Part shown: positions 8,283-25,450 of the stretch, one piece after another | How the letters are laid out: each line of letters begins with the position of its first letter | How positions within the stretch are numbered: the first letter of the stretch is position 1 | Assembly (NCBI GenBank): GCA_964525635.1 | Contig: CAZGJX010000015.1 | Location: forward strand, 1-50,509 | DNA length: 50,509 nt | Direction: 5' to 3' | Source: an uncultured archaeon | GTDB taxonomy: Archaea > Asgardarchaeota > Lokiarchaeia > Sigyniarchaeales > SOKP01 | The notes under the pieces: model-generated | Database searches by the model: none | What the model was told of the DNA's origin: nothing | The model's input: only the letters and a program-made list of their open reading frames with translations | Made by a program: the position numbers and the translations under genes

Positions 8283-8660
8283 ATTAAATTCATCTATTTT
8301 TATAAAATTATATTTTAAAAAAAAAAATTTAAGATAATATTCTTTTAAATATAATGAATTATCTTTTTTTTTTTTATTCTTTTTATGTATTGATTAATTT
8401 AATGTAAAAATTTTTTGGTTATTCATACAGATTTAAAAATTTTTAAACTTTATTTAATTTTATAATATTAGAAGTTATTGTAGTAAAGATAATTATACAA
8501 AGATTAGAAAAAATAATAGAAATGTAAGTAGAATTAAAAATGAACTTAGATTCAGAAAAATTCAAAAAATTCAAACATTCTTGGAAAATATAAGGTCTTT
8601 CTTAATTTTTGATCAGAATAATTAATATTAAAGAAAAAAAAAACCTATAAAAAAGGAAAA

Positions 8661-8666
8661 AGGTGA
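8661..8666 (+). promoter_or_regulatory. Shine-Dalgarno-like AGGTGA before ATT start
   Basis: aggtga-attaa-ATT; the same AAGGTGA motif precedes ATG 11128. Confidence 0.55.
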
Positions 8667-8671
8667 ATTAA

Positions 8672-10078
8672 ATTAATTTTCTTGTAGCAACAAATTGGGA
8701 TTTTAATCTCATAGAAGAGTTAGAAAAATATCCAGTAAATAATTTATATGGTGTCGCAGACTACTCTATTGTGGGTGGGGGGCGTCCTTCTTTTCTATTG
8801 CCAAAAATAACAGAAGAGAAAATACAAGAATATATAAGAGAAGTACATAAGAAAAAAATGAAATTTTCTTATTTATTAAATGCTCCTTGTATGAATAATA
8901 TGGAATATGACTCTCATTATCATAGAGTACTTATTGATTATATTCAATGGATTAGTGATATAAGGGCAGATGGTGTAATTGTAACCATTCCCTTTCTAAT
9001 ACAACTTATAAAAGAACAATTTCCTAATTTAAAAATCCGGGTATCTACAATAGCTCATGTTAACAGTGTAAATAGAGCAAAATTTTATGAAATGTTAGGA
9101 GCAGATGAGATAACTCCAGATGTAATGATTAATCGTGATTTTAAAACATTGGAAAGAATGCAAAAAACTGTTAAGTGCAAGATTGTTCTACTTCTCACTG
9201 ACGGATGTTTATATCAATGTCCTTTTAGATATTATCATTATAATATATTAGGACATGCATCCCAAGCACATCAACAATTTGAACGTAATTATATAGACAC
9301 TTGTATTTTAAATTGTAGTATTATTAAATTCTCTGATCCAGCAGAAGTACTTAAGGCACGATGGGTACGACCTGAGGATTTGGTTCACTATGAATCGATT
9401 GGAATAAATGACTTTAAAATAGCTGGACGTCGAATGTCAACTCCATGGATTGTTAGAGCTGTAAAGGCATTTTCCTCCCGAAAATATGAAGGCAATCTCA
9501 TTGATATAATACAAGGTTTTTCTATGTCGCATGGTGGTTTAGAACAAAAAGACCCCAACATTAAAATAAGTGAAACTCTTGGTAAAGAAGTAAAATCTAA
9601 ATTAATCATTGACAATACAAAATTAGATGGCTTTATAGATTTCTTTAAAAAGCAGAATTGTATAGCAATGTGTAATGATTGTAATTATTGTAATGAATGG
9701 GCAAAAAAAGCTGTTTATTTAGATAAAGAAGAATCTGCATCTTATGTAAAATCAATCAAGAATTATCTTGATGATATTATAACGAGTAGAGAATTTGGGC
9801 TTAATGTAGGGGAATCTGTAAAAAAAAGTAAAATTGGATTAAAATGGAATCTTAAAATTGAAGATATTTTTAACCAGCTAATAAAATTATCGCCTCCTCA
9901 ATTTCAAGGTATTGCAAAAGTGGCGATTTCATCATTAGCCGAAGAAAAAGCAAAAAAAAGAGGATCGCAAGAAGTTAATAATCAAGATATTTTAGAAGCA
10001 TTTATTGAAGGTACTCCTGGACCTTTTCAAGCCGAAATGAGGGAGGGTCTTAAAAAACATGGGCTTATAAAAGAGTAA
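8672..10078 (+). CDS. Peptidase U32-family Fe-S protein (UbiU/TrhP-like putative hydroxylase) with C-terminal DUF2621/PCP_red-like domain
   Basis: 'GGGRP', 'YLLNAPC', 'VSTIAHVNS', 'NRDF', 'GCLYQCPF', 'WVRPEDL', 'FKIAGRR', C-terminal CxxxCxxCxxC. Frame is open upstream of GTG 8771 to ATT 8672 ('INFLVATNWD', matching 'FRLSLACNW' of paralog 20932). Confidence 0.85.
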   Translation: MNFLVATNWDFNLIEELEKYPVNNLYGVADYSIVGGGRPSFLLPKITEEKIQEYIREVHKKKMKFSYLLNAPCMNNMEYDSHYHRVLIDYIQWISDIRADGVIVTIPFLIQLIKEQFPNLKIRVSTIAHVNSVNRAKFYEMLGADEITPDVMINRDFKTLERMQKTVKCKIVLLLTDGCLYQCPFRYYHYNILGHASQAHQQFERNYIDTCILNCSIIKFSDPAEVLKARWVRPEDLVHYESIGINDFKIAGRRMSTPWIVRAVKAFSSRKYEGNLIDIIQGFSMSHGGLEQKDPNIKISETLGKEVKSKLIIDNTKLDGFIDFFKKQNCIAMCNDCNYCNEWAKKAVYLDKEESASYVKSIKNYLDDIITSREFGLNVGESVKKSKIGLKWNLKIEDIFNQLIKLSPPQFQGIAKVAISSLAEEKAKKRGSQEVNNQDILEAFIEGTPGPFQAEMREGLKKHGLIKE

Positions 10079-10285
10079 CTAAAGCTATTTTTATGAATTA
10101 TTCGATAATAATTAAAAGATATCCCATTTTTACTTCAAAAAAAAAGGAAGATTTTTTAACCTTACAATAAATTTAATAATATCTTTATAAAGTAAAAAAT
10201 ATTAATCTTAGTTGCAATTTAAAATATTTATTAATACTTTTGAGAATTTATGAATTCAGAATAATTATTATTAAGAGTATTTAAA

Positions 10286-11017
10286 ATGAAACATAGGAGC
10301 AGACATGAAAAATTAAAGATATATACAATATTGGTTATTACTATTTTATATCTTCCATTTACATTATTTCCTATGTTTTTAAAGGATATTCCCTTTTTCT
10401 CTTCATTAGTTAATAATTATATTATTGCTGGTAGATCATTTTTTATTTCTGATTTACCCTGTATTAATATATTATGGTTTTTGCCAGAAGAATGTCGTAT
10501 CACTTATTTTAGTATAGGGCATCTAATTGATATCTTCATTATAATAAATATTGTTCCTTGTGTTGAAACTACTATTTATCATTATATTGTAAAAGTATGT
10601 AATGAAGAAGAAACTAAAGAATTAAGTTATATGGATATTTATGTTAACAAATCTAGAGAGAAATTTAATTTATTATATTTTAATTTAAATTATGAAATTG
10701 ATATAGAAAATGATCATTCATATGAATCTCATAATATATATATTAAAAATTATCAAAATAACAAGCTTAGACTAAAGGAGTCAAATAATGACTACAATTA
10801 TCAAAAAATAAATGAATATATTCATACCAAAAATCAAAAGAGATTATTTAATAAAATATTTAATTCCAAATTAAAAACTACTTTTAAATTGTTTAATAAT
10901 TCTTTTAATCACTCTTTTTCTAAAAATACTCTGGTATTCCAGAAGAAAAATTATAATCAATATCCCAAAATTAAAACTATTTCTTATAAATATTCTCAAT
11001 GGGAGGGAAAAACATGA
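10286..11017 (+). CDS. Hypothetical protein, N-terminal hydrophobic segments, Asn/Lys-rich C-terminus
   Basis: 243-codon open frame in extremely AT-rich DNA; no recognisable motif. Confidence 0.45.
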   Translation: MKHRSRHEKLKIYTILVITILYLPFTLFPMFLKDIPFFSSLVNNYIIAGRSFFISDLPCINILWFLPEECRITYFSIGHLIDIFIIINIVPCVETTIYHYIVKVCNEEETKELSYMDIYVNKSREKFNLLYFNLNYEIDIENDHSYESHNIYIKNYQNNKLRLKESNNDYNYQKINEYIHTKNQKRLFNKIFNSKLKTTFKLFNNSFNHSFSKNTLVFQKKNYNQYPKIKTISYKYSQWEGKT

Positions 11018-11127
11018 TAAAATTGTGTATATCTTATTTTTTAAGATTGAAATTACAACTGAAAAATAAAGGTAATATACTAACTAAAAATATAAAATTA
11101 AATTATAAAAAATTAAAGGTGAAATAA

Positions 11128-12525
11128 ATGGAATGGAAAGAAGAAATTGAAAATTTATATGAAATAATCACAGATCAGACTCCTGAAGCGTTCCGTTCAT
11201 CAGTCAAAACTATGCTTCGTGAAGCATCTGAAAAAACAGCACGTCTTAGGAATTCTGGATTTGTGAGTAGAGATGATTTACTATCTGCTCTATTTGAAAT
11301 AACTCCTGAAGCATTTCAACCTACAGTTGTTGAAGATTTAAAAAAGATTGGTATTGATACTAATCGGTATATTAAATTGTCAGAAATTAGAAAAAAATAT
11401 TCACGAACATGGGATGAAATTAGTGGAGCATTTTTACCTGGAGTATATCATTTTACCATATATCTAACTGATCGATGCAACCAAAATTGTCTTCATTGTG
11501 CTGCTGCGGTAATGGAGAAACGTCCTGAATTACCCCCGGAAACTTGGATTGAAATTATTGAGGATCTTGAACAAAGCTTACGAAAACGTGGTCGTCGAGG
11601 ATGTTATATATGGTTTGGAGGAGAACCTACTATTCGTAAAGATCTTAAAGATTTAATAAAATATTGCGGTGAAAAGGGCTATTATCAAGCACTTGCAACT
11701 AATGGAATTTTGTTTAATGAAGAACTGGCGAAATTATGTGCAGATGTTAAGATGAGCCATGTTTTTATAAGTTATGATAGTACGGATCCTAAACGGGCTG
11801 CAAAAATTAGAGGACATCCAAAAGCACAAGAAGCGGCAGAAAAAGCCATAAATTTGGCTTCAAAATATGGGCTTTTTATCATTGGTAATGTAACCGCACA
11901 AAAAGAGAACTTCGATGAATTAGAAACCTTACAAAAATATTTTGAATCTAAGGGCGTAATTCCCTTTTACAGACCCCTAATCAAACAACGTTCGGCGGAT
12001 TTAAATTGGGAAGAAATCGGCTTAACTATTGATGAATATCGACAATTCTATGATTTTAAATATAAAAACATTATAGAGACTATCAGAAAAGGAGAAGCAA
12101 CTTCTCTTAATAAATTCTATACATGGGATATGGTACCATTCATGGAGTGTCCTATAAATGATGAGGAAAGGACTGCGATTGAATGGGGTACAGGATGCCA
12201 AGCCTGCCGCTCAATTTCCGGGATTGATACCAATGGAGATGTATTCCCTTGCGATTATCCCTCTGAATTAATCTTAGGCAACATTCTTGAGCAAAGTTGG
12301 GATGAGATTATGGAAACCGAAATGTTCAAAGCTATTAGAGATAGAAAAATAAAAGGGAAATGTGCTACTTGTCATCACCTTGACATGTGTGGTGGTGGTT
12401 GTCGGGTGCATGCTGAGAATGAAACTGGTGATTTTTTAGCGGCTCTCCCGTTTTGTTGGCATCAGAATGATCATAAACATGAAAAAAAAATAACAGAAAA
12501 AAAAGTGATTGAATTACTTGAATAA
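11128..12525 (+). CDS. Radical SAM/SPASM protein (PqqE/AhbC-like) with N-terminal DUF2621/PCP_red-like domain
   Basis: 'CNQNCLHC', 'GGEP', 'ATNG'; SPASM 'CQACR..GDVFPC..CATCHHLDMCGGGCR..CW'. Confidence 0.9.
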   Translation: MEWKEEIENLYEIITDQTPEAFRSSVKTMLREASEKTARLRNSGFVSRDDLLSALFEITPEAFQPTVVEDLKKIGIDTNRYIKLSEIRKKYSRTWDEISGAFLPGVYHFTIYLTDRCNQNCLHCAAAVMEKRPELPPETWIEIIEDLEQSLRKRGRRGCYIWFGGEPTIRKDLKDLIKYCGEKGYYQALATNGILFNEELAKLCADVKMSHVFISYDSTDPKRAAKIRGHPKAQEAAEKAINLASKYGLFIIGNVTAQKENFDELETLQKYFESKGVIPFYRPLIKQRSADLNWEEIGLTIDEYRQFYDFKYKNIIETIRKGEATSLNKFYTWDMVPFMECPINDEERTAIEWGTGCQACRSISGIDTNGDVFPCDYPSELILGNILEQSWDEIMETEMFKAIRDRKIKGKCATCHHLDMCGGGCRVHAENETGDFLAALPFCWHQNDHKHEKKITEKKVIELLE

Positions 12526-12565
12526 TTGAGTAATTTAATTAAAATAGATTGAAGGTTTGATATAT

Positions 12566-13966
12566 ATGGAATGGGAAAAGAAAACTGAAGAATTATTTGC
12601 GAGAATTGTAGAGAAAATGCCAGAAGGATTTCGTCCTTCAGTAAAACCATTGATTATAGAAGCAGCTGAAAAAAGATGCGTTGAGCGAAACGAATCTTAT
12701 ATTAATGAATCAGATGTAATTACAGGAATTTTTGATATTATTCCTGAAGCATTTAAATCTATAATGGTTGAAGATTTAAAATCTCTGAGTATTGATGTTG
12801 AACGATATATTGAGCTTAAGGAAATCAGAGATCGACTTAAATTATCATGGGAAAAATTGGAAAAAGCATTTCATCCGGGTAATATTCATTTTGCGATGTA
12901 TATTACCGATAGATGTAATATGAAGTGTATACATTGTGCCGCAGATGATCAAATACCTCGACAGGAGTTATCAAAAGAGCAATGGTGCCAGATAATGGAT
13001 AATATAGAATCTGGACTTAGATCCCAGGGTAGACATGCATGTTTCATTTGGTTTGGGGGAGAACCAACTCTACGAGAAGATATTGGGGATTTAATGAGCC
13101 ATTGCAAAGAAAAAGGATATTATCATGCTATTATTACTAATGGCGTTGAATTTGATGATAAATTCGCTAAAATGTGCAAAGAAAATGATTTAAGTCACGT
13201 ATTTGTAAGTTTTGACAGTGCCAATCCTAAGAAAAATGATCAATTACGCGGATATCCAAATTCATTAGAATACACCAAAAAAGCTATAGATAGTTGTTTG
13301 AAATATGGATTATTTGTATGTGCTTCTATTACTATTATGAAACAGAATATTGATGAATTGGAAGAACTTAATAATTTATCGTTAAAATGGGGAGCTCAAC
13401 CTTTTTTTAGACCAGTTGTTAAACAAAATCGCGCTGCAGAATATTGGGATGAAATTGGTTTGAATAAAGAAGAATATAAGAGGTTATATGATTATAAATA
13501 TAAACATGCTATTCAAAAAATTAGGCAAGGTGAAGCAGGGATCCTACCGGCTTATGAAATATATGAGATGATGCCCTTTATGAATTGCTTAAGAAATGAT
13601 AAGGAAATAACAGCGCTTGAATGGGGTGTAGGATGTTTAGCATGCAGAACGATGATGGGCGTTGGTGTAGATGGAACGCTATTTCCTACGGGATATCCTA
13701 CAAAATTAACTCTTGGTCATGGATTAAAGGACAAATTTGAAGATATATTAAATTCACAACTCTATAAAGATATTCGTGACAGAAAAAAAATTAAAGGAAA
13801 ATGCGCATCTTGTCATCATCTGAAATATTGCGGAGGGGGGTGTCGCGTCACTGCAGAATTTATAACTGGAGATTTTTTTGGTTCATTTCCTTTTTGTTGG
13901 CATGAAAATGACCATGAACATGAAGTTGAGACTAATAAAAAGAAGGAAATTGAATTACTTGAATGA
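12566..13966 (+). CDS. Radical SAM/SPASM protein, tandem paralog of 11128, with N-terminal DUF2621/PCP_red-like domain
   Basis: 'CNMKCIHC', 'WFGGEPT', 'CASCHHLKYCGGGCR'; starts 'MEWEKK' like 'MEWKEE'. Confidence 0.9.
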   Translation: MEWEKKTEELFARIVEKMPEGFRPSVKPLIIEAAEKRCVERNESYINESDVITGIFDIIPEAFKSIMVEDLKSLSIDVERYIELKEIRDRLKLSWEKLEKAFHPGNIHFAMYITDRCNMKCIHCAADDQIPRQELSKEQWCQIMDNIESGLRSQGRHACFIWFGGEPTLREDIGDLMSHCKEKGYYHAIITNGVEFDDKFAKMCKENDLSHVFVSFDSANPKKNDQLRGYPNSLEYTKKAIDSCLKYGLFVCASITIMKQNIDELEELNNLSLKWGAQPFFRPVVKQNRAAEYWDEIGLNKEEYKRLYDYKYKHAIQKIRQGEAGILPAYEIYEMMPFMNCLRNDKEITALEWGVGCLACRTMMGVGVDGTLFPTGYPTKLTLGHGLKDKFEDILNSQLYKDIRDRKKIKGKCASCHHLKYCGGGCRVTAEFITGDFFGSFPFCWHENDHEHEVETNKKKEIELLE

Positions 13967-14000
13967 TAAAGGAGATTGCTAAAGCATAGGGATGATAATA

Positions 14001-15416
14001 ATGCGAGTATTAATAATATCTGGAAGTCGAGAGATAGTACATGTAATGGTTTCACCCATAGGTGAAGCTTATCTAGCATCATATCTTCAATCACAAGGAC
14101 ATGAAGTTTTATTATTAGATCTAACTCTAAGTAATAATTTTAGAAATGATATTATAAAAGCTATTGATAATTTCAATCCTGAAGTGATAGGTCTTTCTAT
14201 TCGTAATATAGATTCAACAACATACCCTGGAAATTTATTTTTTTATTTACCTTTTAAAAATATTTTTAATTATATAAAAGAAAATATAGAACCTGAAATA
14301 CCCCTAATCTTAGGTGGGGCTGGGTTTTCAATATTCTCAGAAGAAATACTTAGAGATTTAAATCATGATATTGGAATCGTTGGAGAAGGAGAATATGCTT
14401 TTAATGAATTATTAAAATATATTGAAAAAGATAAAGATCCTCGAAAAATAGATAGAGGTATATGTTTTATAGATAAAAAAGGGAGATATCATCAAAAACC
14501 AACATGGCATATTAATAATTTAGATGATTTACCAAATCCTACAAGAGAATTGATGGATAATAATAATTATCTAATTGATCCAATAGATAAGGAAGGTAAT
14601 TTTTGGGGGAATATTCAAACTAAGCGTGGTTGCTCGAAAAACTGCATTTATTGTAGTTATCGATATATTGAAGGCCCTAAAGTTCGATATCGATCCCCAG
14701 AAAAAATAGCTGAAGAACTAGATTTAATGGTAAATAATTTTGGAATCAAAAATGTTTTCATTGTAGATAGTCTGCTCAATTTAAATTATAATCACTTAAA
14801 AAATACTTGTCATGAAATTATTAACCATAAAATTGATTTTAATTGGGGAGCTAATTATGCTCCAAGTAGTCAATATTTAGATTTATTACCCCTTATGAAA
14901 GAAAGTGGTGCAACTCATCTAGCAACGGGTATGGAATCCTTATCTGAAGATATATTAAAAAATATGAATAAAGATAGAATACCTAATGAGTCAATTCTAA
15001 CTTCTGAAAAGTGTATTGATCTAGAAATTGAACAATTAATCCATATAATTGTTGGAGGTCCTGGAGAAACTTCTGAAACAGTTAGAGCTTCTTTCGATCG
15101 ATTAGAAACTATTAGAAATTATAGAGGAAATATATGGCAAGGAGATGGAGATGTAATTATTTTCTTGGGAATGAGAATATATCCTCATACGCCTCTTCAG
15201 AAAATTGCTGAGAAAGATAAGGTGATTTCTAAAGGACAAAATTTACTTAAACCAACATTTTACATTTCTCCACAAATTAAAGAAGTAGATCTTTTTAGTT
15301 TAGTAAGAGAATATTGTGAAGTAAATCCAAGATGGATGGCTCCAGGATTAGGCTTAAATAATCCAGATGGCTTTGACGAAATGAGTCAAATCCAGTTTGC
15401 TCTATATCAAAAATAA
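14001..15416 (+). CDS. Cobalamin-dependent radical SAM protein, TsrM-like / lipid-biosynthesis B12-rSAM type (putative C-methyltransferase)
   Basis: 'LLDLT', 'IGLSIRNID', 'LGGAGFSIF', 'IQTKRGCSKNCIYC', 'GGPGET', 'GMRIYPHTPL', 'PTFYISP'. Confidence 0.82.
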   Translation: MRVLIISGSREIVHVMVSPIGEAYLASYLQSQGHEVLLLDLTLSNNFRNDIIKAIDNFNPEVIGLSIRNIDSTTYPGNLFFYLPFKNIFNYIKENIEPEIPLILGGAGFSIFSEEILRDLNHDIGIVGEGEYAFNELLKYIEKDKDPRKIDRGICFIDKKGRYHQKPTWHINNLDDLPNPTRELMDNNNYLIDPIDKEGNFWGNIQTKRGCSKNCIYCSYRYIEGPKVRYRSPEKIAEELDLMVNNFGIKNVFIVDSLLNLNYNHLKNTCHEIINHKIDFNWGANYAPSSQYLDLLPLMKESGATHLATGMESLSEDILKNMNKDRIPNESILTSEKCIDLEIEQLIHIIVGGPGETSETVRASFDRLETIRNYRGNIWQGDGDVIIFLGMRIYPHTPLQKIAEKDKVISKGQNLLKPTFYISPQIKEVDLFSLVREYCEVNPRWMAPGLGLNNPDGFDEMSQIQFALYQK

Positions 15417-15471
15417 AAATAAAAAACAAAAAAAAAAAACATTAAAAAATAGTAAAAATGAGGGAATTTTT

Positions 15472-16974
15472 ATGAGTAAAAAAGCAAGAAGCGGATTACC
15501 ATTTGGTAAAGTTACTCCGTTAGAAATTATAGAGAAAATTGGAAAAGATGGATTATCTGGAGGAATTGAAGATGTCTGTCTCTTTCCTACATATAGTTGT
15601 AATCTTAATTGTTATATGTGTCATGTACAACATGTACGCGATAAGGATAACAATTATATATCAATGGATGATTGGAAGGCAGCTTTTAAAAATCTAAATG
15701 TATCTAAAATGTTTCACCTAGGGGGAGAACCTTTTGTAAGAGAAGATATGATGGATTTAATTGAATTTTTTGATTCCAAAGGGATTAATCAAATTCTTTC
15801 CACCAATGGTCAAAATATTACTGAGTCAACTGCTAAAAGGCTAGCTGCATTGAAGAATTTAGCTTGTATACAAGTATCTCTTAATGGTACAGAAGAAATT
15901 GATGGAAAAATAAGAGGATCTCCTCATTCATATAGAAGAACTGTAGAGGGTATAAAACTATTGAAAAAAGCTGGTATACAAACATGGATTCATGCCGTTA
16001 TTTTAAATGAAAATATCAATGATCTAGTAAATATAGTGAAACTTGGTACAGAATTAAAGGTGGATATGATTAATTATCTTTTTGGTCAGGTAATGTCTGA
16101 GCAAGATGCAGAAGAAACAAGAGCTTCTATTAAAAAGTGGACAGGTGAAGATGTAAATGTTGGAGGATATATAGGAGAAATAAATTATTCTGAAGAAGAA
16201 TTAGTGAATAGTATTAACGCTGTAAAAGAAGAAGCGAAGAAAACGGGAATTCAAGTAATGTTTTTCCCTAGAATTTTTGGAGAGCATCCAGAAATATATT
16301 GGCGAGGTACTTTACTTGAACAAGAGAGGCCTATTTGTCAAATGACATTAATGCCCCCCCTCACACCTATAATTGGTCCTGAAGGGGATGTTGTTGCGTG
16401 TTGTATTATTGATAAGAGTTTTGGCAATATTAAAGAAAAAAGTCTTGAAGAAATTTGGGATTCTGAGACCGTTCGTAATTTTAGGAAAGGATTGATTAAT
16501 GATAAATTAATGGCAGTATGTAAACGATGTCCAAGTGGAGATTTAATAAAGGTTGATGCAAAGAAAGATACATCCTTATCGAATAAAGAAGATTGGAACT
16601 CTTATTTATCATTATTAACTAAAGAACTTAATAATTTATCTGAGTTACAACCGATATTAGAAAAAGTTTCTCCTATTATATTTCAATATCAAATTACTGA
16701 TCAACCAAGTTTCAATTATTGGCATTACTTTAAAAAAGATGGTGTTAGTTTGGGTTTAGGTGAAATTGATGATGATGATGTCTCAAAATTAATCCATAAA
16801 ACTGATTTTGAGACATTAAAGAGTGTAAATGCTGGTATAAACAATCCAATCCAAGCTACGATGGAGGGAACTTATGAAGTTACTGGAGACATGACTAAAT
16901 TAATGGCTTGTGCTCCACTTATTCCAGTAACAGCAAAAGCTCATAATGTTGTAATTAAAGATTTTTTAAAATAA
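15472..16974 (+). CDS. Radical SAM/twitch-type protein fused to C-terminal SCP2 lipid-binding domain
   Basis: 'CNLNCYMC', 'LGGEP', 'STNG'; 'C...GDVVACC..GNIKEKSLEEIW...CKRC'; C-term 'DFETLKSVNAGINNPIQATMEGTYEVTGDMTKLM' (SCP2 pattern). Confidence 0.85.
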   Translation: MSKKARSGLPFGKVTPLEIIEKIGKDGLSGGIEDVCLFPTYSCNLNCYMCHVQHVRDKDNNYISMDDWKAAFKNLNVSKMFHLGGEPFVREDMMDLIEFFDSKGINQILSTNGQNITESTAKRLAALKNLACIQVSLNGTEEIDGKIRGSPHSYRRTVEGIKLLKKAGIQTWIHAVILNENINDLVNIVKLGTELKVDMINYLFGQVMSEQDAEETRASIKKWTGEDVNVGGYIGEINYSEEELVNSINAVKEEAKKTGIQVMFFPRIFGEHPEIYWRGTLLEQERPICQMTLMPPLTPIIGPEGDVVACCIIDKSFGNIKEKSLEEIWDSETVRNFRKGLINDKLMAVCKRCPSGDLIKVDAKKDTSLSNKEDWNSYLSLLTKELNNLSELQPILEKVSPIIFQYQITDQPSFNYWHYFKKDGVSLGLGEIDDDDVSKLIHKTDFETLKSVNAGINNPIQATMEGTYEVTGDMTKLMACAPLIPVTAKAHNVVIKDFLK

Positions 16975-17005
16975 AAAGGAGAAATAAAAAAAAGAGCTAT
17001 AAATT

Positions 17006-18514
17006 ATGAATGAAAAACAAGTTGGATGTGACGTATCTCTACGAGAAGCAATGCCCCTTGGAAAGGATATACCATTAAATGTAATAAAGCAAATAATTGA
17101 AGATGGTCTTTCTGGGGAATTTAGTGATGTATGCTTTTATGCAAGTTTCAACTGTAATTTAAATTGTTATATGTGCCTTATAAAACATATGAAAGGTCGA
17201 AAAATAACTCCCATGTCTATGGAGCAAATAAAGGAGGGATTTAAAGATGCTAAAGTCTTATTTCACCTTGGAGGAGAACCATGGGTTATGAGTAATATGA
17301 TGGAAATGATAGAATATTTCGATGCTAATGGTGTTAATCAAATAATGTCCACAAATGGCACTAAAATTACAAAAGAAATCGCTGAGAAATTAGCTGGATT
17401 AAAACATTTTGTTAATATACAAGTCTCATTGAACGCATCAAATGGAATAGATGGCAAAATTAGGGGATGGCCAAAATCTTTCGAAAAAACTGTTGAGGGT
17501 ATAAAGATTCTTGTTGATGCAGGCTTATCTACATGGATACATTGCACAATTGTAAATGAAAATATTAACGATTTAGCAAATGTAGTTAAACTTGGTGCAG
17601 AGCTAGGAGTTAAAGCAGTCAATTTCATCTTTGCACATATAGTTAGTGAGGAAGAAATTAAGGCTTCTAAAGAGCTAATGAAGAAATGGATTGGAGAAGA
17701 AGTTGAAATAGGTGGATATGTGGGAGAATTAACATATTCTGAAGAAGAATTGATAAACAGTATTAATGCAGCAAAAGAAGAAGGAAAAAAACATGGAATT
17801 ACTGTGATGTTCTTTTCAAAGTTATTTGGTGATAAGCCTGAAATATATTGGCGAGGAACGTTATTAAAGCAAGAACGACCGATTTGCCAATTAACTTTAA
17901 TGCCCCCAATGACACCTAATATTGGACCAGATGGTTCAGTATATAACTGCCCATATATAGTCAAAAGCTTTGGAAACATTACTGAAATGCCCCTTAAAGA
18001 GATTTGGGATTCTGATTCAATTCGTGCTTTTCGGAAAGGAATGATAAAGGACAAGTTATTACCTATATGTAGACGTTGCCCATGTAGTGATATGGTTGAT
18101 TTATCTTTATCCAAAGAACATGAATTAACAGATATAGTAAAATGGAAGATATATCTTGAAAGATTAACTAAAGAATTGAATAATATGTCTGAAGTTCCAC
18201 CAATTTTGAATAGCATTGAACCTACTATTTTCCAATATCACCTTAATGATCATCCAGAGTTGAATTTTTGGCATGCCTTTGATAAAAATGGTATTCGGAT
18301 AGGAATGGGTGAAAATACACAGGATAGTGACTTTATTAAGCTTATCCATAAAGCTGATTTTGAGATTGTGAGAAAGGTAAATTCTGGCGAACAGAATCCT
18401 GTCCAAGCAACTATGGCAGGACTTTATATAGTTGATGGAGATATGGCTAAATTAATGGCTTGTGCTCCAATTTTACCTTTGCAAGTAAAAGCTCATGAAA
18501 AAGTAATAAAATAA
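17006..18514 (+). CDS. Radical SAM/twitch-SCP2 fusion, tandem paralog of 15472
   Basis: 'CNLNCYMC'; near-identical 'PEIYWRGTLL.QERPICQ.TLMPP'; SCP2 'NPVQATMAGLYIVDGDMAKLM'. Confidence 0.85.
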   Translation: MNEKQVGCDVSLREAMPLGKDIPLNVIKQIIEDGLSGEFSDVCFYASFNCNLNCYMCLIKHMKGRKITPMSMEQIKEGFKDAKVLFHLGGEPWVMSNMMEMIEYFDANGVNQIMSTNGTKITKEIAEKLAGLKHFVNIQVSLNASNGIDGKIRGWPKSFEKTVEGIKILVDAGLSTWIHCTIVNENINDLANVVKLGAELGVKAVNFIFAHIVSEEEIKASKELMKKWIGEEVEIGGYVGELTYSEEELINSINAAKEEGKKHGITVMFFSKLFGDKPEIYWRGTLLKQERPICQLTLMPPMTPNIGPDGSVYNCPYIVKSFGNITEMPLKEIWDSDSIRAFRKGMIKDKLLPICRRCPCSDMVDLSLSKEHELTDIVKWKIYLERLTKELNNMSEVPPILNSIEPTIFQYHLNDHPELNFWHAFDKNGIRIGMGENTQDSDFIKLIHKADFEIVRKVNSGEQNPVQATMAGLYIVDGDMAKLMACAPILPLQVKAHEKVIK

Positions 18515-18571
18515 TTAATTAAATAATATAAAAAAGAGAAAATAAAATATAAGTTAAGAGAGAAAATCAAA

Positions 18572-19744
18572 ATGAAATGGAAATCTGAAATTAAACAACT
18601 TTTTGAGAATGTGGTCTCAAATATTCCTGAAATGGTAAGACCAGCTGTAAAACCTACACTTTTTGAAGCTGCAGAAAAAAAATGTATGGAGAGAAATGGA
18701 AAAGAAGTAGCTGAAGTAGATTTAGTAGTAGCGTTGTTTGAAGTGACACCACCAACTTTTCAACCAACTATGATTGAAGATCTAAAAAAAGTTGGGGTTG
18801 AATATGATAAATACCTAGCAAAAGTGGAATCTAATTTTAAGTGTAATACTGATCTTAATCAGATGATAAAGGATATATCAACGATTTGTGATGTTACTGG
18901 AGTAAAATGTGATAATGAAGCAATCTGGAAAGCTTTCAATGCTTATGAAAAATTTTTCAAAGGAGCTCCATTATCAATTAGAACGACGACTAAACCCGTT
19001 GAAAAAAGGGATGTAGCAGTAAGATATGTAGAATTTTTTGTACCTCATTATCCAGATCCTTATACAACAGCTATCAATGAAGGATTAATTAAGAAGGATG
19101 GACACGCTATCCATAAGATGATAATAGAGGTAATAAACACGTTTGACATAATGGGATATGGTGTAGATGTAGATGCGAGTAATGGATTATCAAAGATTTG
19201 GCCATTTATAGTACCTGGATCAATTGATCCAATCTATTCAATGAAGTCATACCCAAAAAGTATGAAAAAATATCAAGAATACTTTAATAAGCATGGACTA
19301 ACAGCTTTTAGTTTATTTGCATTTGATTTCCTTCATAATACAGTGAACATCTATTTCATGCTTAAAAAACCATCCAAATCTACTTATGAAAATTGTATTG
19401 CTCTTGTAGAGGATTTAGGATTTAAACCCGACTCCAAAGAGGTTATGGAAGCTTGTTGTGAAGCTGCCCATCTAAATTATACATTTAATTGGGATACAGA
19501 AAAAATCGAGCGTGTATGTTTTGGGATAACATGTCAAGATGCTAAAAAGATTCCAGTACATCTACATCCATTGATAGAAGAATTTGTTGAAAAAACACCA
19601 CTCCAAAGTGATTCAAATAAATTTATCTGGGGAGTAACCTTCTCCCAAAACGGTCGCTATTATAAGATTGAAAACGATTATAATGGAACAATGGTCGATT
19701 TCTTAGAAATGGGTTGTAAAGCGGGTCTTGATAAATTTAACTAA
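18572..19744 (+). CDS. Soluble ABBA aromatic prenyltransferase (NphB/CloQ, PTase_Orf2-like) with N-terminal DUF2621/PCP_red-like domain
   Basis: Co-linear with remembered NphB/CloQ motifs: 'DPYTTAINEGL', 'YGVDVDASNGLSKIWPF', 'FNKHGL', 'FDFLHNTVNIYF', 'LVEDLGF', 'YTFNWDTEKIERVCFG', 'WGVTFSQNGRYYKIENDY'. Confidence 0.87.
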   Translation: MKWKSEIKQLFENVVSNIPEMVRPAVKPTLFEAAEKKCMERNGKEVAEVDLVVALFEVTPPTFQPTMIEDLKKVGVEYDKYLAKVESNFKCNTDLNQMIKDISTICDVTGVKCDNEAIWKAFNAYEKFFKGAPLSIRTTTKPVEKRDVAVRYVEFFVPHYPDPYTTAINEGLIKKDGHAIHKMIIEVINTFDIMGYGVDVDASNGLSKIWPFIVPGSIDPIYSMKSYPKSMKKYQEYFNKHGLTAFSLFAFDFLHNTVNIYFMLKKPSKSTYENCIALVEDLGFKPDSKEVMEACCEAAHLNYTFNWDTEKIERVCFGITCQDAKKIPVHLHPLIEEFVEKTPLQSDSNKFIWGVTFSQNGRYYKIENDYNGTMVDFLEMGCKAGLDKFN

Positions 19745-19756
19745 TTTTTTTTTTTT
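19745..19756 (+). terminator. Oligo-T tract, possible archaeal terminator inside the cluster
   Basis: T run immediately after the TAA of the prenyltransferase. Confidence 0.35.
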
Positions 19757-19787
19757 AATTTTAAAAATAAATAAAGTGTATCTTAAA

Positions 19788-20939
19788 ATGCAGATAATAA
19801 TCGATGGAGACTATAATAAAGAATTAATTTCTCAAATTAAAAGGAAAGATTTACCAGTTTCACATATTATTGTTCATGTTCCTCAAAATCCAATTGGAAA
19901 TAGTTCAATTTTTCTGCCAGAAATCCTTCCTTCTCTAAAGGAATTTAGAGATTATACTAAGATTATTCAAGATAATGGAATAATTCCCATAGCAGGTATT
20001 GATTCAACATGTCAAGGAAATTTGGAAGCCCATGCTAAACAAAATAAAGCAATTAATATATTATTTGAAAACCTACATGAATTAGAATACTCTAATTACC
20101 TAATATCATCCCCAAATAATGCAGCATTTATAAATGCAAATTTTCCTGAAGATAAAATTTACTTATCTTATTCTCAATATATCACATCATTAAATCGTGC
20201 AAAAATTTTTTTTGAATTGGGAGTAGACAATATTATAATTCACCCTGACATAATTAGGAATTTTAATATATTAAAGAATTTCTTGAAATTAAAGCAAAAT
20301 CTAAATAATAATGAAAAAATTGATTATATTCTTCCATTAAATCTTGGGTGCAATTGGGGATGTATTCATTGGTATGAACATCATAATCTTCAAAGTCATC
20401 GAACAATAAAGTCATCTATTTTACCAAATCAAAATAATATTTCTGACATTGAGGATGAGTTTGATTATCCTATCCTTGATTGTTGGAGGAAGCGTCTTAA
20501 ACAACCTTCTGAAATTCTTAAAGCAGGATGGATATCCCCATTTAATATTCAATTATATCATGATTTGGGGTATGAAAAATTCGTACTTTTTACCAGTAGA
20601 TTTTCTACGGAGAAGATATTGAATATCATTAAATCATATATTGATAAATTACATATGGATGATTTTAAAGAATTTCTGAATATTCCTCAACCTTATGGGG
20701 ATTATTGGTCAGGAGAAGAAATTCATAATTCAATGATCTTTCTTGATCCAAATAATATCAGAGAATTTTGCGATAATTTCCCCTATAATACTCATTATCC
20801 ATTTGAGAAGCAAATTAATGAATATTGTAATAAATATATTGATAAATTTAATAATAAACACATTAAAGAACGAGAAGAAATCCTCAAAATAATAATGGAA
20901 AAGAAAGAAAAACTATATAAAGGTGTATTTAATGGCTGA
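19788..20939 (+). CDS. Divergent U32-family protein (possibly non-catalytic partner)
   Basis: Aligns with the other U32s ('ITSLNRAK', 'IRNF', 'LGCNWGC', 'EILKAGWISP') but lacks GxGRP and FKIxGRR; ATG 19788 preferred. Confidence 0.72.
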   Translation: MQIIIDGDYNKELISQIKRKDLPVSHIIVHVPQNPIGNSSIFLPEILPSLKEFRDYTKIIQDNGIIPIAGIDSTCQGNLEAHAKQNKAINILFENLHELEYSNYLISSPNNAAFINANFPEDKIYLSYSQYITSLNRAKIFFELGVDNIIIHPDIIRNFNILKNFLKLKQNLNNNEKIDYILPLNLGCNWGCIHWYEHHNLQSHRTIKSSILPNQNNISDIEDEFDYPILDCWRKRLKQPSEILKAGWISPFNIQLYHDLGYEKFVLFTSRFSTEKILNIIKSYIDKLHMDDFKEFLNIPQPYGDYWSGEEIHNSMIFLDPNNIREFCDNFPYNTHYPFEKQINEYCNKYIDKFNNKHIKEREEILKIIMEKKEKLYKGVFNG

Positions 20940-22992
20940 AAAATTTCGCTTATCATTAGCATGTAATTGGAAGATTGACTTATTGAATCTAATAGATCTG
21001 GATCAATCGTTAAAAGATAATATTCATGATTTATATGGTACTTATGATTCTAGTTTTACTGGATCAGGGAGACCCTTTTTTTTAATGGCAAAGAGAGAGA
21101 GATTAGAGGTAGAAACATACATAAATAAAGTTCATGATTTAGGATTGAAATTCACTTGGTTATGGAATGGTATGTGTCAAGGATATTACAAATTTAATTC
21201 TGAACATCAAACTAAAGCCCTAGAGGAATTAGATTGGTTAGGAGATTTAAGTGTAGAATATTTAACAATAACAGATCCTTACCTTGCCGAGTTTGCAAAA
21301 AATCATAAACCAAAATTAAAATTGAAAGTTTCAGTTATTTCTGAAGTAAATTCATTATCACGTGCTTTAGATTGGCAAGAGATTATTGGTGATGAAGGTG
21401 TTTTAACATTATCTATAATGATAAATCGTAATTTTCCTCTCTTAGAAGAGATTAGGAATAGTGTAAAATGTGATATTGAACTACTTACAAATGATTGTTG
21501 CCTGAATGATTGTCCTTTTAGATTTTTTCATTATACAGAATGCTCACACGCTAGCCAAACTCATGATATACTAGAAGGCTATTATAATGATTGGTCAACA
21601 ATTGCTTGTCAAAATCAAAAATGTTTCAATCCAGAACAGATAATTATGTCTAAATGGATTCAACCATCAGATCTGGATAAGTATATTAATATTGGAATAA
21701 ATTATTTTAAAATTTCAGGAAGGAGATATGGAACTGATTGGTTATATAAGGCATTAAAAGCATATAGTAAAAAATCATTTAATGGGAATCTCGGTGATAT
21801 TTTTAATGGGTATTCTTTTGTTTCAGATCCTTTAATACTAGCTGGAAATCAATTTTCTGAATTTTCTATTAAACAAGAAAAAATGGAAGTAGATGCTGAT
21901 AATCAAAGTATAATGTTAAGTGTTCCAGATTTTAATGCAGTGTTAAAAGGTGATGAATTAAATGATTTTATATCTAATATACCTTTCCAAGGAACTAAAT
22001 GTACTGAAATTTGTGGTATTAAATGTCACTACTGTAATGATTATGCAAAGAAAGCTTATTATGTTCCTCCTGATAAATTATCAGAGTCATATAGAAATTA
22101 TATGGCATTTCTTTATGATTATCTAAATTTAGGAGAAATGTTTCTTTCAAAAGAAGAAAGAACTCTTAAAATTCCAATTAGAGAGATAGAATCAGATACT
22201 TATTTTGGAATCGCTTGGTTATCTGAAGCAGAAACTTTTTTAGAGGAGGTTATGATTATAATTCCTGAATCAATGCAACTTGCCGCTAAAAAAGGTATTG
22301 GATTCACAGCAGAACGAACTGCAGAAAAACAAGGTTTAAACCATATTGATCTAAATTTACTTATCTCTATACTTATTCAATTAGTACCTCAACCTTTTAA
22401 ACATGATCTTCTCGATTTCTTGGTAGAAAAAGACATCGATTTATCACATTTTATCAATGAAGAAGATATAGAATACATGAAATCTTTACCATATGGTACT
22501 GATTTAATGGCTCAAAAAGCAAAACAAAAAAGATTAGTAGAGCCTAATTCAAATTTAAATATAAATAATTTAAATATACAAAAAAATAAGGAAGTGAAAT
22601 TAAATATGGATACAAAAGAAGAATGGGAGGCGTACCTTACACGCTTTATGAAAGCCTATAATGAATTACCAGATTTATCTTCATTATTAAAACCTATCTC
22701 CCCTTTGATATTTCAGTACAATCTTTCAGATAAACCTGAAATGAATTATTGGCAATTTGTTGAAGAGGATAAAATGAGATGGGGAATGGGAAATTATGAT
22801 GGAAATGATGCTCCCAAGATTATCCACAAAACTGACTTTGAGACATTGATAAAAGTTAATTCTGGTGAATCAGATCCAATTCAAGCTACTATGGCAGGTA
22901 ATTATACTGTTGAAGGAGATGTAACTAAACTTATGGCATGTGCTGCTTTACTCCCTCTTAACGCAAAAGCCCATAATAAGGCTATAGAATGA
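20932..22992 (+). CDS. U32-family Fe-S protein + DUF2621/PCP_red-like domain + SCP2 domain (triple fusion)
   Basis: 'GSGRP', 'CLNDCPF', 'FKISGRR', 'CTEICGIKCHYC'; middle 'AWLSEAETFLEE...IPESMQLAAKK...VPQPFKHDL'; C-term 'DPIQATMAGNYTVEGDVTKLM'. Overlaps the upstream stop. Confidence 0.85.
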   Translation: MAEKFRLSLACNWKIDLLNLIDLDQSLKDNIHDLYGTYDSSFTGSGRPFFLMAKRERLEVETYINKVHDLGLKFTWLWNGMCQGYYKFNSEHQTKALEELDWLGDLSVEYLTITDPYLAEFAKNHKPKLKLKVSVISEVNSLSRALDWQEIIGDEGVLTLSIMINRNFPLLEEIRNSVKCDIELLTNDCCLNDCPFRFFHYTECSHASQTHDILEGYYNDWSTIACQNQKCFNPEQIIMSKWIQPSDLDKYINIGINYFKISGRRYGTDWLYKALKAYSKKSFNGNLGDIFNGYSFVSDPLILAGNQFSEFSIKQEKMEVDADNQSIMLSVPDFNAVLKGDELNDFISNIPFQGTKCTEICGIKCHYCNDYAKKAYYVPPDKLSESYRNYMAFLYDYLNLGEMFLSKEERTLKIPIREIESDTYFGIAWLSEAETFLEEVMIIIPESMQLAAKKGIGFTAERTAEKQGLNHIDLNLLISILIQLVPQPFKHDLLDFLVEKDIDLSHFINEEDIEYMKSLPYGTDLMAQKAKQKRLVEPNSNLNINNLNIQKNKEVKLNMDTKEEWEAYLTRFMKAYNELPDLSSLLKPISPLIFQYNLSDKPEMNYWQFVEEDKMRWGMGNYDGNDAPKIIHKTDFETLIKVNSGESDPIQATMAGNYTVEGDVTKLMACAALLPLNAKAHNKAIE

Positions 22993-22995
22993 ATA

Positions 22996-23021
22996 TTTTT
23001 TCTTTTTTTTTTTTCTTTTTT
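22996..23021 (+). terminator. Long T-rich tract ending the biosynthetic operon
   Basis: tttttt-c-tttttttttttt-c-tttttt directly after TGA 22992. Confidence 0.55.
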
Positions 23022-23109
23022 AAAATTACCTCAATAAAATATTTGATTTTTTTTTCATGGTTATTAAATAAAATTACAGATTATTTATGAAGAAATTAAA
23101 TTTTGATAA

Positions 23110-23940: not shown

Positions 23941-24513
23941 ATGTTTTGTCCAAGTTGTGGTTCAGAATTGAGAGAAGGTAATCAAAAATATTGTCATTGT
24001 TGTGGAACTAATCTTCTTAACGCTACTGAAGACACTCAATTATATACTAGAATTTCTCAAAAAACACCAAAAAAAATACCAAAATCTACAATAGAATACT
24101 CAACTGTTCCAGAAATTAACAAAAAACAAATTAAACCAAAAGGTGGGATAGGGGCCCATTCAAAAAGATGTTTAGCATTTGCAATTGTATCATTGGCTTG
24201 CGCTGGTGTTGCTTCTGTTTTAGGTACAAGTTTAAATTTTTTCTTTAATTGGTTTTTTGATGGTAATAGTAGGATTTTATTAATACCTCGATTTATACCA
24301 ATGACATCTATTTATATAGTTGGATTAATTTTTGGAATTTTGTCTAGAACGAATAGTTCTAAAGCAGGATTAAAAGAATCAAAAAATAATGTTGAGAAAG
24401 TTGGAAGTATACTTGGAATCTTAGGAATTATCTCTAATGCAATTGGGCTCGCTGGTGTATTGATATTTGCTTTATCCTTCATTGATTTTCCATCTATTCC
24501 ATACATCGATTAA
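23941..24513 (+). CDS. Zinc-ribbon membrane protein, paralog 3
   Basis: 'MFCPSCGSEL..YCHCCG', 'HSKRCLAFAI', 'EKVGSI'; SD AGGAGG upstream. Confidence 0.82.
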   Translation: MFCPSCGSELREGNQKYCHCCGTNLLNATEDTQLYTRISQKTPKKIPKSTIEYSTVPEINKKQIKPKGGIGAHSKRCLAFAIVSLACAGVASVLGTSLNFFFNWFFDGNSRILLIPRFIPMTSIYIVGLIFGILSRTNSSKAGLKESKNNVEKVGSILGILGIISNAIGLAGVLIFALSFIDFPSIPYID

Positions 24514-24588
24514 ATTAACTATATATGTTTAATTTTGTAAAATAGAGATTACATAATTTAATTTATACTTTATATTTATTCTTTCTAT

Positions 24589-25356: not shown

Positions 25357-25450
25357 TTTATTTTTTTATATATTAAAAATTTGTTTGTTGGTATTAATTA
25401 TTTTTTAATTAAATGAATTTTTAATATTTATATAAGAATTAAAGTTAGTA

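Follow-up and report, generated by a model that had tools for sequence, protein, structure and literature searches.

Introduction

ABBA prenyltransferases have been characterized from bacterial and fungal secondary metabolism. BzaD, like TsrM, methylates an aromatic carbon, and peptides are frequent substrates of SPASM enzymes and TsrM-like methylases. In the O2-independent ubiquinone system, UbiU, UbiV, and UbiT accompany UbiA, UbiE, and UbiG (PMC10990095, PMC10470549). Of the twelve U32 subfamilies, most await characterization, and prephenate-dependent hydroxylation has been predicted in further pathways (PMC10990095). An earlier note on contig CAZGJX010000015.1 (assembly GCA_964525635.1) had proposed that a run of archaeal genes repeats ubiquinone logic with different parts, yielding a new membrane electron carrier or secondary metabolite. 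In this study, we analyzed the full 50,509-nt stretch (the window). It holds an operon that is conserved and, in the literature searched, undescribed. We consider it rather probable that this operon encodes an O2-independent multi-enzyme route to a membrane compound with an indole or phenol as its aromatic part, which would be prenylated, methylated, and hydroxylated; substrate and product are putative.

Results

Gene content of the operon

The features are given below. D denotes a DUF2621-like domain of ~85 aa that is fused to five operon enzymes and was not mentioned in the earlier note.

5171..6676, plus strand: B12a, cobalamin-binding radical SAM protein, TIGR04190/Ta0216-like below cut-off, upstream of the span in the earlier note
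6873..8282, minus strand: B12b, class B radical SAM protein, BchE/HpnR/HpnJ-like, optional neighbor
8672..10078, plus strand: U32a, PF01136 TIM-barrel Fe-S protein of an uncharacterized subfamily, C-terminal D domain (aa 389-466)
10286..11017, plus strand: conserved membrane protein (the "orphan"), homologues in 19/33 loci and on contig C76
11128..12525, plus strand: rS1, N-terminal D domain and radical SAM/SPASM
12557..13966 (probable start 12566), plus strand: rS2, rS1 paralogue (49%), D domain and radical SAM (rSAM)/SPASM
13992..15416, plus strand: B12c, cobalamin-dependent rSAM, likely aromatic C-methyltransferase
15397..16974 (probable start 15472), plus strand: rS3, radical SAM, truncated auxiliary-cluster domain, and C-terminal SCP2
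17006..18514, plus strand: rS4, rS3 paralogue (55%), rSAM and SCP2
18572..19744, plus strand: ABBA, NphB/CloQ-family aromatic prenyltransferase, N-terminal D domain (aa 1-85)
19728..20939 (probable start 19788), plus strand: U32b, divergent U32 paralogue
20923/20932..22992, plus strand: U32c-D-SCP2 fusion, U32c assigned by Pfam
22996..23022, plus strand: T tract, candidate archaeal-type terminator

ORF and domain calls bore out the gene order and strand described earlier (ten co-directional ORFs, 8672-22992), and the T tract said to end the run is present at ~22996-23022. The count of eight predicted Fe-S enzymes, ten with 5171 and 6873, also stood, with CxxxCxxC in all five rSAMs and U32 cysteines invariant across homologues, and the Asgard-type host was supported as Promethearchaeota/Lokiarchaeia. 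The ORF at 10286 lies where it had been placed and is not an orphan. Its product has hydrophobic segments and an N-terminal part of ~105 aa under selection (codon-position variability 0.31/0.18/0.41) followed by a variable C-terminal half in which this variability is flat; no Pfam match and no usable Atlas match were found for it.

The first two intergenic gaps are 207 and 110 nt, and the remainder range from -8 to 57 nt. U32a is the last gene in most relatives' loci; hence, the order in the window is rearranged, and the operon may comprise more than one transcript. The U32a start is ATT, located 6 nt past an AGGTGA site and immediately after an in-frame TAA, and ATT or ATA stands at this position in several relatives too. 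A promoter scan gave 75 sites versus 96 expected. Antisense ORFs, such as 17338-18216, were rejected as shadows of coding frames.

Distribution, synteny, and fusions

The operon occurs in about a quarter of the genomes of one Lokiarchaeia family. Its gene set is kept together in ~30 Promethearchaeota loci and is seen again in other lineages; the core (D-rS1, D-rS2, ABBA, SCP2, and U32-D) extends across several genera and no fewer than two additional families and is also found in Thermoplasmata bin983 (L074) and on the contigs of loci L040 and L041. The host itself carries a second, paralogous copy on contig C76, on which the earlier note was silent. Within the family, U32a co-occurs with ABBA more than by chance (23/25 ABBA-positive versus 5/85 ABBA-negative genomes, kin not being independent). 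Five family genomes have U32a without a detected ABBA, including G018 and G239, which are 98-100% complete and keep SCP2; thus, prenylation by ABBA is not always the entry step.

Several fusions link the enzymes, namely a 999-aa D-rS2-D-ABBA-SCP2 protein (L040), ABBA-D-rS2 (L041), SCP2-D-ABBA, and D-ABBA-SCP2, and in those that contain SCP2 its proposed association with the prenyltransferase is seen. The L040 module is followed directly by a full archaeal shikimate operon, with chorismate mutase last. SCP2 is a stand-alone gene of ~130 aa where U32b/c are absent, and the SCP2 domain of the U32c fusion has invariant H72, K73, C110, and H121.

The prenyltransferase

ABBA matched PF11468 (E 5.5e-55, 187 bits against a cut-off of 22), and its best PDB sequence match was AmbP1 (E 1.6e-37). 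The predicted model (pLDDT 90) has the ten barrel strands of the antiparallel PT-barrel expected of 18572 and matched AmbP3/FamD1 in Foldseek with a TM of 0.86-0.93 (AmbP3, 0.93) and an rmsd of ~2.1. The diphosphate-site motifs IRT, RY, KIW, NxY, ERxCF, and YxKxExDY line up with AmbP1 and do not vary among 12 homologues, the invariant residues being R137, R151, K208, N259, Y261, R314, K365, and Y370. By both sequence and fold, ABBA is closest to indole prenyltransferases. Sequence and model together suggest a putative C-prenylating enzyme with a presumed acceptor and chain length.

The radical SAM enzymes

No cluster rSAM attains a curated family cut-off. The models nearest to rS1 were AhbD, NirJ, AhbC, MftC, and PqqE, all far below cut-off; rS1 has the full CxxxCxxC and auxiliary-cluster cysteines and is 71-92% identical in relatives. 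rS2 is without the FPC auxiliary cysteine in the 30 aligned homologues. rS3 and rS4 have four conserved auxiliary cysteines only, in a truncated Twitch-like domain; they are optional and, beyond the window, occur in 3/33 loci (rS3 in the Thermoplasmata locus L074, rS4 in L055 and L057).

B12c, present in 21/33 loci, scored 271 bits with TIGR04072 (cut-off 360) and 207 bits with BzaD (cut-off 450), and its best PDB match was TsrM (E 3e-16). The aromatic C-methylases TsrM and BzaD are its nearest characterized kin, in line with the C-methylation envisaged earlier for class B rSAMs. In L041, a HemN-like rSAM and a UbiE-like methyltransferase stand in place of B12c, a gene set consistent with interchangeable methylation. 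B12b is present in 4/33 loci. B12a is the most constant neighbor of the module, usually lying directly upstream, and its homologues (36-42%) adjoin U32-D genes in the distant loci L040 and L042. This link of B12a to the module is not mentioned in the earlier note.

The surrounding envelope/lipid island

Neighborhood comparison placed the module within an island, likewise new to this analysis.

3545..30236, no strand assigned: envelope/lipid island around the module
3545-4300: polysaccharide deacetylase
4545, 23183, and 23941: zinc-ribbon membrane proteins
24589-25356: GT2
25451-26545: hexapeptide acetyltransferase
28100-29338: LuxE-like protein
29379-30236: membrane protein

In the host, the part of the island with the CDP-alcohol phosphotransferase, GT2, LuxE2, and three B12-rSAM genes lies on contig C62. 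Such neighbors raise another explanation, in which the CDP-alcohol phosphotransferase, GT2, LuxE-like, and B12-rSAM genes would make an isoprenoid lipid of the membrane (archaeol/GDGT or glycolipid) and the module would tailor this lipid or its head group. Any aromatic would then be a substituent on the lipid, a view that partly overlaps with our best reading. The module is often inserted in the phosphotransferase island, it is nested within the family among genomes carrying the phosphotransferase (23/25 ABBA-positive, 26/28 U32a-positive) and B12a (24/25 ABBA-positive), module versions without ABBA retain SCP2 and U32a, and the top model of B12c (TIGR04072) is a lipid-associated family. However, nesting can arise from physical linkage and kinship without functional dependence, the island also occurs without the module (L079-L081, L083), and four module-bearing genomes outside the family have no close orthologue of the phosphotransferase. 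Moreover, fusion proteins join ABBA to rS2 and SCP2, and a shikimate operon lies beside it. We regard lipid tailoring as an unlikely account of the module.

Host aromatic metabolism and the electron-carrier question

The host has chorismate synthase and chorismate mutase/prephenate dehydratase (PheA), so prephenate is available as a candidate donor. It also encodes shikimate enzymes, of which shikimate kinase was not detected by the query used, and its trp operon is complete. A search of the host for prephenate dehydrogenase gave none; hence, the CloQ-type acceptor 4-hydroxyphenylpyruvate would need scavenged tyrosine. A PDH_N match on C9 was rejected as TyrA, being sub-threshold and without a match to E. 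coli TyrA.

That the product is an analogue of quinones or methanophenazine, serving respiration as a new electron carrier in the membrane, appears quite unlikely. The cluster logic does parallel UbiA, UbiU/V, UbiT, and the methylases, and known quinone routes are missing from the host, in which no MqnA, no MenD/C/F, and no men, mqn, or ubi route were found. Its UbiA-family matches comprise one sub-threshold protein and two enzymes assigned from sequence and gene context, a DGGGP synthase and a DPPR-type enzyme. UbiD was rejected as a quinone gene; it adjoins aconitase-X subunits, an arrangement known from the archaeal mevalonate pathway. MenB/MenE/MenF-like matches were rejected as generic crotonase, CoA ligase, and TrpE.

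Against a carrier, no NarI/HdrE, NrfD, NuoH, or Sdh cytochrome b was found in the 100%-complete host, in a search that covered five membrane families, with ETF:QO and VKOR/DsbB outside the set. Among 110 family genomes, NuoH occurred in four, none of them ABBA-positive (0/25 carriers), NarI/HdrE in 0/110, and hydrogenase cytochrome b as marginal matches only. The module is also patchy within genera (10/36, 4/36) and absent from the host's three congeners (0/3). Because the tested quinone-reactive membrane subunits were not found, the electron-carrier branch of the earlier proposal is not supported, and in such hosts a compound of the membrane or envelope is the likelier product.

The D domain

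Within a single operon, the D domain is found on members of three enzyme families unrelated to one another, and the host's ten D domains all lie within two clusters (the window and C76); B12a, B12c, and U32b are without it. It scored 16-23 bits with DUF2621 (PF11084), below the Pfam cut-off of 27.7, and a PDB sequence search with the D profile gave nothing significant. It is all-helical, and its fold matched DUF2621/PCP_red with a TM of 0.81-0.87 and an rmsd of 1.5-2.0 over ~84 aa between predicted models. In polyketide and terpene clusters unrelated to this one, D is likewise attached to several enzymes, including a HemN-type rSAM and a SPASM enzyme adjoining U32-D. We propose that the shared domain gathers the enzymes on one complex or one shared ligand.

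One domain common to unrelated tailoring enzymes is also what RREs provide, and with the peptide-acting habit of SPASM enzymes and TsrM-like methylases it recalls a RiPP-like system, in which D would recognize a leader peptide and the enzymes would prenylate, methylate, cross-link, and hydroxylate aromatic residues, possibly of membrane protein 10286. This is very improbable: the predicted fold of D is not that of an RRE, PKS and terpene clusters contain D as well, small ORFs showed no recurrence (ORFs <60 aa, window only), ABBA is of the NphB/CloQ type and far from peptide prenyltransferases such as LimF, and SCP2 indicates a lipid.

The U32 proteins

U32a has Cx3C...Cx3C and a C-terminal Cx3Cx2Cx2C, invariant across homologues, and its predicted model (pLDDT 91) has the U32 structure 5d88 as best fold match (Z 22.7). 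U32b has no Pfam match and was assigned to U32 by similarity to U32a (E 1e-19) and tree position; it always immediately precedes U32c, and the pair may form a heterodimer like UbiU/UbiV or TrhP1/TrhP2. The cluster U32s split from TrhP, RlhA, UbiU, and UbiV with support 100/100 in a tree with four characterized references only, a long UbiV branch, and unsettled bootstrap, from which B. subtilis TrhP1/TrhP2 were left out. They have Cx3C spacing, without the Cx6C of the TrhP/RlhA motif E-x7-C-x6-C, and matched UbiU/UbiV at E 6e-5 or worse.

Lying outside the TrhP/RlhA clades, they form a separate subfamily found in small-molecule clusters: a Bacillus wiedmannii cluster that also encodes ADC mutase, PabAB, ATP-grasp ligases, and AroF, type II PKS clusters of Roseburia and a Lachnospiraceae-cluster protein, an ACP/adenylation cluster, and a squalene-hopene-cyclase cluster. 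That they are RNA hydroxylases, or proteases beside unrelated enzymes, is exceedingly unlikely: TrhP is the sole NCBIfam match of U32a (31 bits against a cut-off of 534), but the host has two other RlhA-like U32s (E 1e-47 to 1e-52 to RlhA), and the tree split, the spacing, and the fusions to D and SCP2 speak against it. U32a is a putative prephenate-dependent hydroxylase.

Discussion

The best reading is an accessory pathway to a meroterpenoid-type, lipid-soluble product. ABBA would C-prenylate an acceptor derived from shikimate, with an indole/tryptophan derivative or a phenol as the likeliest candidates, and the hydrophobic intermediate would be held by the SCP2 domain, which the fusions link to the prenyltransferase. 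Judging from their motifs, the rS1/rS2 SPASM pair, with the optional rS3/rS4, may remove or remodel the side chain, for example through oxidative decarboxylation of the AhbD/MftC type or through C-C ring closure. B12c, perhaps with B12a, would C-methylate the ring, as kinship with TsrM/BzaD suggests, and U32a and U32b/c may hydroxylate it with prephenate as oxygen donor, following the UbiU/V precedent (PMC10990095). The D domain would group these enzymes on one complex or shared ligand, to which membrane protein 10286 may be an anchor. The product probably functions in the membrane or envelope and not as a respiratory-chain pool quinone; it could be a structural lipid, an antioxidant or radical trap, a lipid or glycan substituent, or a signal or defense metabolite. 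Of the sequence prenylate, hydroxylate, methylate, and hold the lipid that had been put forward, the gene set, PT-barrel, SCP2 link, and methylase kinship stand, and the electron-carrier product is not supported. None of the three findings named earlier as refuting the proposal was obtained: the genes are conserved together, 18572 has a PT-barrel, and the U32s fall apart from the RNA-hydroxylase clades.

A bolder, tentative proposal is that the DUF2621-like domain serves generally as an assembly tag, joining this U32 subfamily and rSAMs (here with ABBA and SCP2) into O2-independent tailoring complexes across anaerobes, in clusters for archaeal meroterpenoids, gut-bacterial type II polyketides, and terpenoids, and that the Lokiarchaeia complex makes a new class of prenylated indole/phenol membrane compound. 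If so, that compound could serve as a sediment biomarker.

In the literature searched, with most subscription journals outside it, no paper was found on the operon, on an ABBA prenyltransferase in Asgard archaea, on TIGR04190, TIGR04072, or PF11468, or on U32 proteins in natural-product clusters, nor any mention of DUF2621, for which the cluster gives a testable role. A specialized-metabolite or aromatic-lipid pathway would, if true, lie in close relatives of eukaryotes, and since no quinone-using enzymes were found, the search shifts from bioenergetics to membrane chemistry. The cluster and its bacterial relatives are expressible test cases, with small-molecule substrates, for the U32 hydroxylation prediction (PMC10990095), and the 999-aa fusion is a ready single-protein reagent.

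Compared with known systems, ABBA shares the PF11468 PT-barrel and diphosphate motifs with the hapalindole/ambiguine indole prenyltransferases AmbP1, AmbP3, and FamD1 and with EpzP, NphB, and CloQ. It differs from them in identity (26-30%), archaeal host, and extra D domain, and its relatives are fused to rSAM and SCP2. Its partners are Fe-S radical enzymes, whereas those of AmbP/NphB/CloQ-type systems are O2-dependent oxygenases or halogenases. rS1/rS2 form a paralogous SPASM pair, like AhbC/AhbD, NirJ1/J2, MftC, and PqqE (best models E 1e-35 to 1e-39), but reach ~130 bits against cut-offs of 265-650, carry an N-terminal D domain and no RRE, and in rS2 miss one auxiliary cysteine. The nearest characterized or modeled relatives of B12c are TsrM (a tryptophan C2-methyltransferase), BzaD, and TIGR04072 lipid-cluster B12-rSAMs, all with scores below curated cut-offs. 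The D domain matches the helical DUF2621 (PF11084) and PCP_red (PF08369) domains by shape, below the Pfam cut-off. Relative to the O2-independent ubiquinone system, UbiA is replaced by a soluble ABBA and UbiE/UbiG by B12-rSAM, an extra SPASM pair and the D domain are present, and no quinone-using chain was found. The cluster's U32s form a clade apart from UbiU/UbiV and are not their orthologues, and its SCP2 has no detectable relation to UbiT (profile probability 0.9%); therefore, the ubiquinone parallel drawn earlier holds as functional analogy only. Within that analogy, both systems have U32 Fe-S proteins, including a tandem pair, with SCP2, and they share the logic of prenylation, methylation, and anaerobic hydroxylation, with a prephenate source present.

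Operon content and gene starts

The cluster represents a real, conserved pathway that is built from known enzyme families and is undescribed within the searched literature. It is best read as an O2-independent, multi-enzyme route that probably leads to a prenylated, methylated and hydroxylated aromatic (indole or phenol) membrane compound. As the earlier note stated, ten ORFs lie in order on the plus strand of the window, with a T tract after the final stop codon.

8672, +: U32 (Pfam), U32a
10286, +: orphan membrane protein, orf
11128 and 12557, +: radical SAM + SPASM (Pfam), rS1 and rS2
13992, +: B12-binding + radical SAM (Pfam), B12c
15397 and 17006, +: radical SAM + SPASM, weakly SCP2 (Pfam), rS3 and rS4
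18572, +: PTase_Orf2 (Pfam), ABBA prenyltransferase
19728, +: U32 (similarity to 8672), U32b
20923, +: U32 and SCP2 (Pfam), U32c-D-SCP2

Two other features of the window were recorded.

373-2232, +: WD40 beta-propeller protein, adjoining rpL10e
35848-40689, -: 1613-aa ORF

In the homologue alignment, CxxxCxxC was kept in all five rSAMs and the U32 cysteines were invariant. The U32a frame opens with ATT, 6 nt after AGGTGA and preceded by an in-frame stop (8660-8674); gene callers shorten the protein (435 aa vs 468). We take the ATT as a non-canonical start and not as damage, because relatives have ATG, GTG, ATT or ATA at this position, several likewise after a stop. An apparent ATT/ATA start after AGGTGA and a stop was seen in the window and in six loci from several genera (L047, L048, L052, L061, L062, and L071), and may reflect conserved non-canonical initiation or regulation.

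Distribution and conserved core

A stable core was found in 33 loci: the B12-rSAM B12a (5171 in the window), orf, D-rS1, D-rS2, (B12c), and D-ABBA, then SCP2 or U32b + U32c-D-SCP2, then U32a-D, where D is a ~85-aa domain. rS3/rS4-SCP2 were optional. Outside Asgard, the core occurred in Thermoplasmata bin983, with a U32a-type gene ~60 kb away, and in two contigs of 46-48% GC. A D-rS1 orthologue (53%) was also noted in a Polyangiaceae MAG, a 70% GC bacterium (L078:9989-11455), with no other core genes within 10 kb.

Named homologues were mostly labelled Promethearchaeota/Lokiarchaeota. When 300 genomes from the phylum were searched, PF11468 turned up in 17 of the 68 that belong to the host's family and, elsewhere in the class, in one further family. 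Among 110 family genomes, ABBA was found in 25, U32a in 28 and both in 23, with patchy presence within genera. The module was not found in the host's three congeners, nor matched in three single-contig sister-family genomes (G044, G050, and G055). These three resemble the cultured strains in size, so the cluster may be missing from the cultures now available.

The host has a second, paralogous copy (contig C76, 11543-20946) in the order orf, D-rS1, D-ABBA, U32b, U32c-D-SCP2, D-rS2, D-ABBA. It has two ABBA genes (51-55% identical) but neither a B12-rSAM nor U32a. Genome G017 carries a similar copy.

ABBA prenyltransferase, D domain and SCP2

The PT-barrel expected for 18572 was recovered in the predicted model of PRENYLTRANSFERASE (pLDDT 90), which has ten barrel strands; its best matches are AmbP3, FamD1, and AmbP1 (TM 0.86-0.93, depending on the target), followed by EpzP, NphB, and CloQ. 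Motifs aligned to the basic and aromatic barrel residues of AmbP1 were invariant. Fusions found in Lokiarchaeia (SCP2-D-ABBA and D-ABBA-SCP2), in L041 (ABBA-D-rS2), and in L040 (D-rS2-D-ABBA-SCP2, a single 999-aa protein) tie ABBA to the rest of the module.

D is helical, with the pattern W...P..FR...AE...R...D...P..F...L...G, and the DUF2621 and DUF2621/PCP_red clusters match it in predicted fold. It is fused to U32a, rS1, rS2, ABBA, and U32c, and all ten copies of the host genome fall in the window and C76 clusters. Its placement varies among the compared loci (either terminus, tandem, or stand-alone), and unrelated clusters carry it on a HemN-type rSAM and on a SPASM enzyme beside U32-D. 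Because the D-bearing ABBA has no Fe-S cluster, D more probably serves in docking or in binding a shared ligand than in loading clusters or supplying electrons. The SCP2 domain (22612-22992) shows unusually high conservation (mean column identity 70%), and its invariant His, Lys, and Cys110 would be compatible with a covalent or metal-assisted carrier.

Surroundings and alternative readings

The module usually lies directly downstream of B12a, often within an island encoding a polysaccharide deacetylase, two LuxE-like proteins, two GT2s, an acetyltransferase, UDP-galactopyranose mutase, zinc-ribbon membrane proteins, and a CDP-alcohol phosphotransferase. In family genomes, B12a and the phosphotransferase co-occur (41/45), and nearly all module carriers have both. 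This setting, together with ABBA-less versions bearing SCP2 and U32a-D (G018 and G239), would suit a module for lipid tailoring. The island is also found without the module, and module-bearing genomes outside the family have no close phosphotransferase orthologue. Within the family, then, the link is genuine without being obligatory, and it leaves lipid tailoring as a live, though unlikely, alternative.

The phosphotransferase itself was found in 48 of 110 family genomes, co-occurring tightly with B12a. A candidate undescribed polar-lipid pathway lies on another host contig.

C62:11287-19722: CDP-alcohol phosphotransferase, membrane GT2, LuxE-like, three B12-rSAMs

The earlier note also suggested a new membrane electron carrier, and the host, a 100% complete genome, does lack known quinone routes: MqnA and MenD/C/F are absent, its UbiA-family proteins are mostly explained as lipid/glycan enzymes, leaving one sub-threshold protein, and its UbiD has a mevalonate context. 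However, the quinone-reactive NarI/HdrE, NrfD, NuoH, and Sdh cytochrome b are likewise absent from the host. Of the 110 family genomes, four have NuoH (0/25 carriers) and none has NarI/HdrE; for hydrogenase cytochrome b, the matches were only marginal. A pool quinone would have no recognised user. The suggestion was not borne out, and a respiratory role is improbable. A RiPP-like system is more doubtful still.

U32 proteins

In a fold search, the predicted model of U32a proved to be a U32 barrel (5d88, Z 22.7). No match of the three cluster U32s to E. coli TrhP, RlhA, UbiU, or UbiV was better than E 7e-8. By contrast, two further U32s of the host, both canonical, matched RlhA at 1e-47 and 1e-52 and are likely rRNA/tRNA hydroxylases.

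C2:40503-41768: RlhA-like U32
C69:15005-16276: RlhA-like U32

In a tree with few references and rough bootstrap, the cluster subfamily split from all six at 100/100. The U32s thus fall outside the TrhP/RlhA clades, as the prenylated-aromatic proposal needed, and RNA modification is hardly credible for them.

The subfamily has 524 representatives at E < 1e-30. Six sampled contexts outside the module were biosynthetic; of the remainder, one lay amid B12-rSAM and DUF genes and one adjoined a Pel-type polysaccharide locus.

L102:13655-24300 (Bacillus wiedmannii plasmid CP024685.1): MFS, U32, aminodeoxychorismate mutase, two ATP-grasp ligases, PabAB, GNAT, AroF
L103 (Roseburia faecis) and L104, gut anaerobes: type II PKS clusters with U32-D, two to three HemN-type rSAMs, B12-rSAM
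L106:5290-16729: two U32-D, B12-rSAM, SPASM pair (one with D), methylthioadenosine-salvage-like genes, squalene-hopene-cyclase-like gene, polyprenyl synthase
ACP/adenylation cluster
Methyltransferase/B12-rSAM cluster

L103 and L104 are candidates for O2-independent tailoring of aromatic polyketides. Judged by gene content, L106 is a putative terpenoid cluster of the same design as the Lokiarchaeia module. The culturable aerobe carrying L102 offers an easy test case for the subfamily.

Substrate and comparison with known systems

The nearest solved relatives of ABBA (26-30% identity) and B12c both act on indoles, and among the models for B12c BzaD ranks second. A full trp operon and PheA are present in the host, in which TyrA was not detected. 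On these grounds, and at such distant homology, an indole acceptor may be no less likely than a CloQ-type phenol.

U32 subfamilies are mostly uncharacterised, and prephenate is the oxygen donor in UbiU/V-dependent hydroxylation (PMC10990095). By gene content, the host makes chorismate and encodes chorismate mutase/prephenate dehydratase. The L040 module (two U32-D, B12a-like, rS1, the 999-aa fusion, and B12c) is followed directly by ten archaeal shikimate-pathway genes, the last of which encode chorismate synthase and chorismate mutase. This one locus gives the best hint to both ring source and oxygen donor.

The ubiquinone-like logic first proposed holds in that the module works like the UbiU/V/T system, but it is not a member, its U32s forming a separate clade. 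It likewise works like ABBA-based meroterpenoid clusters without being one of them.
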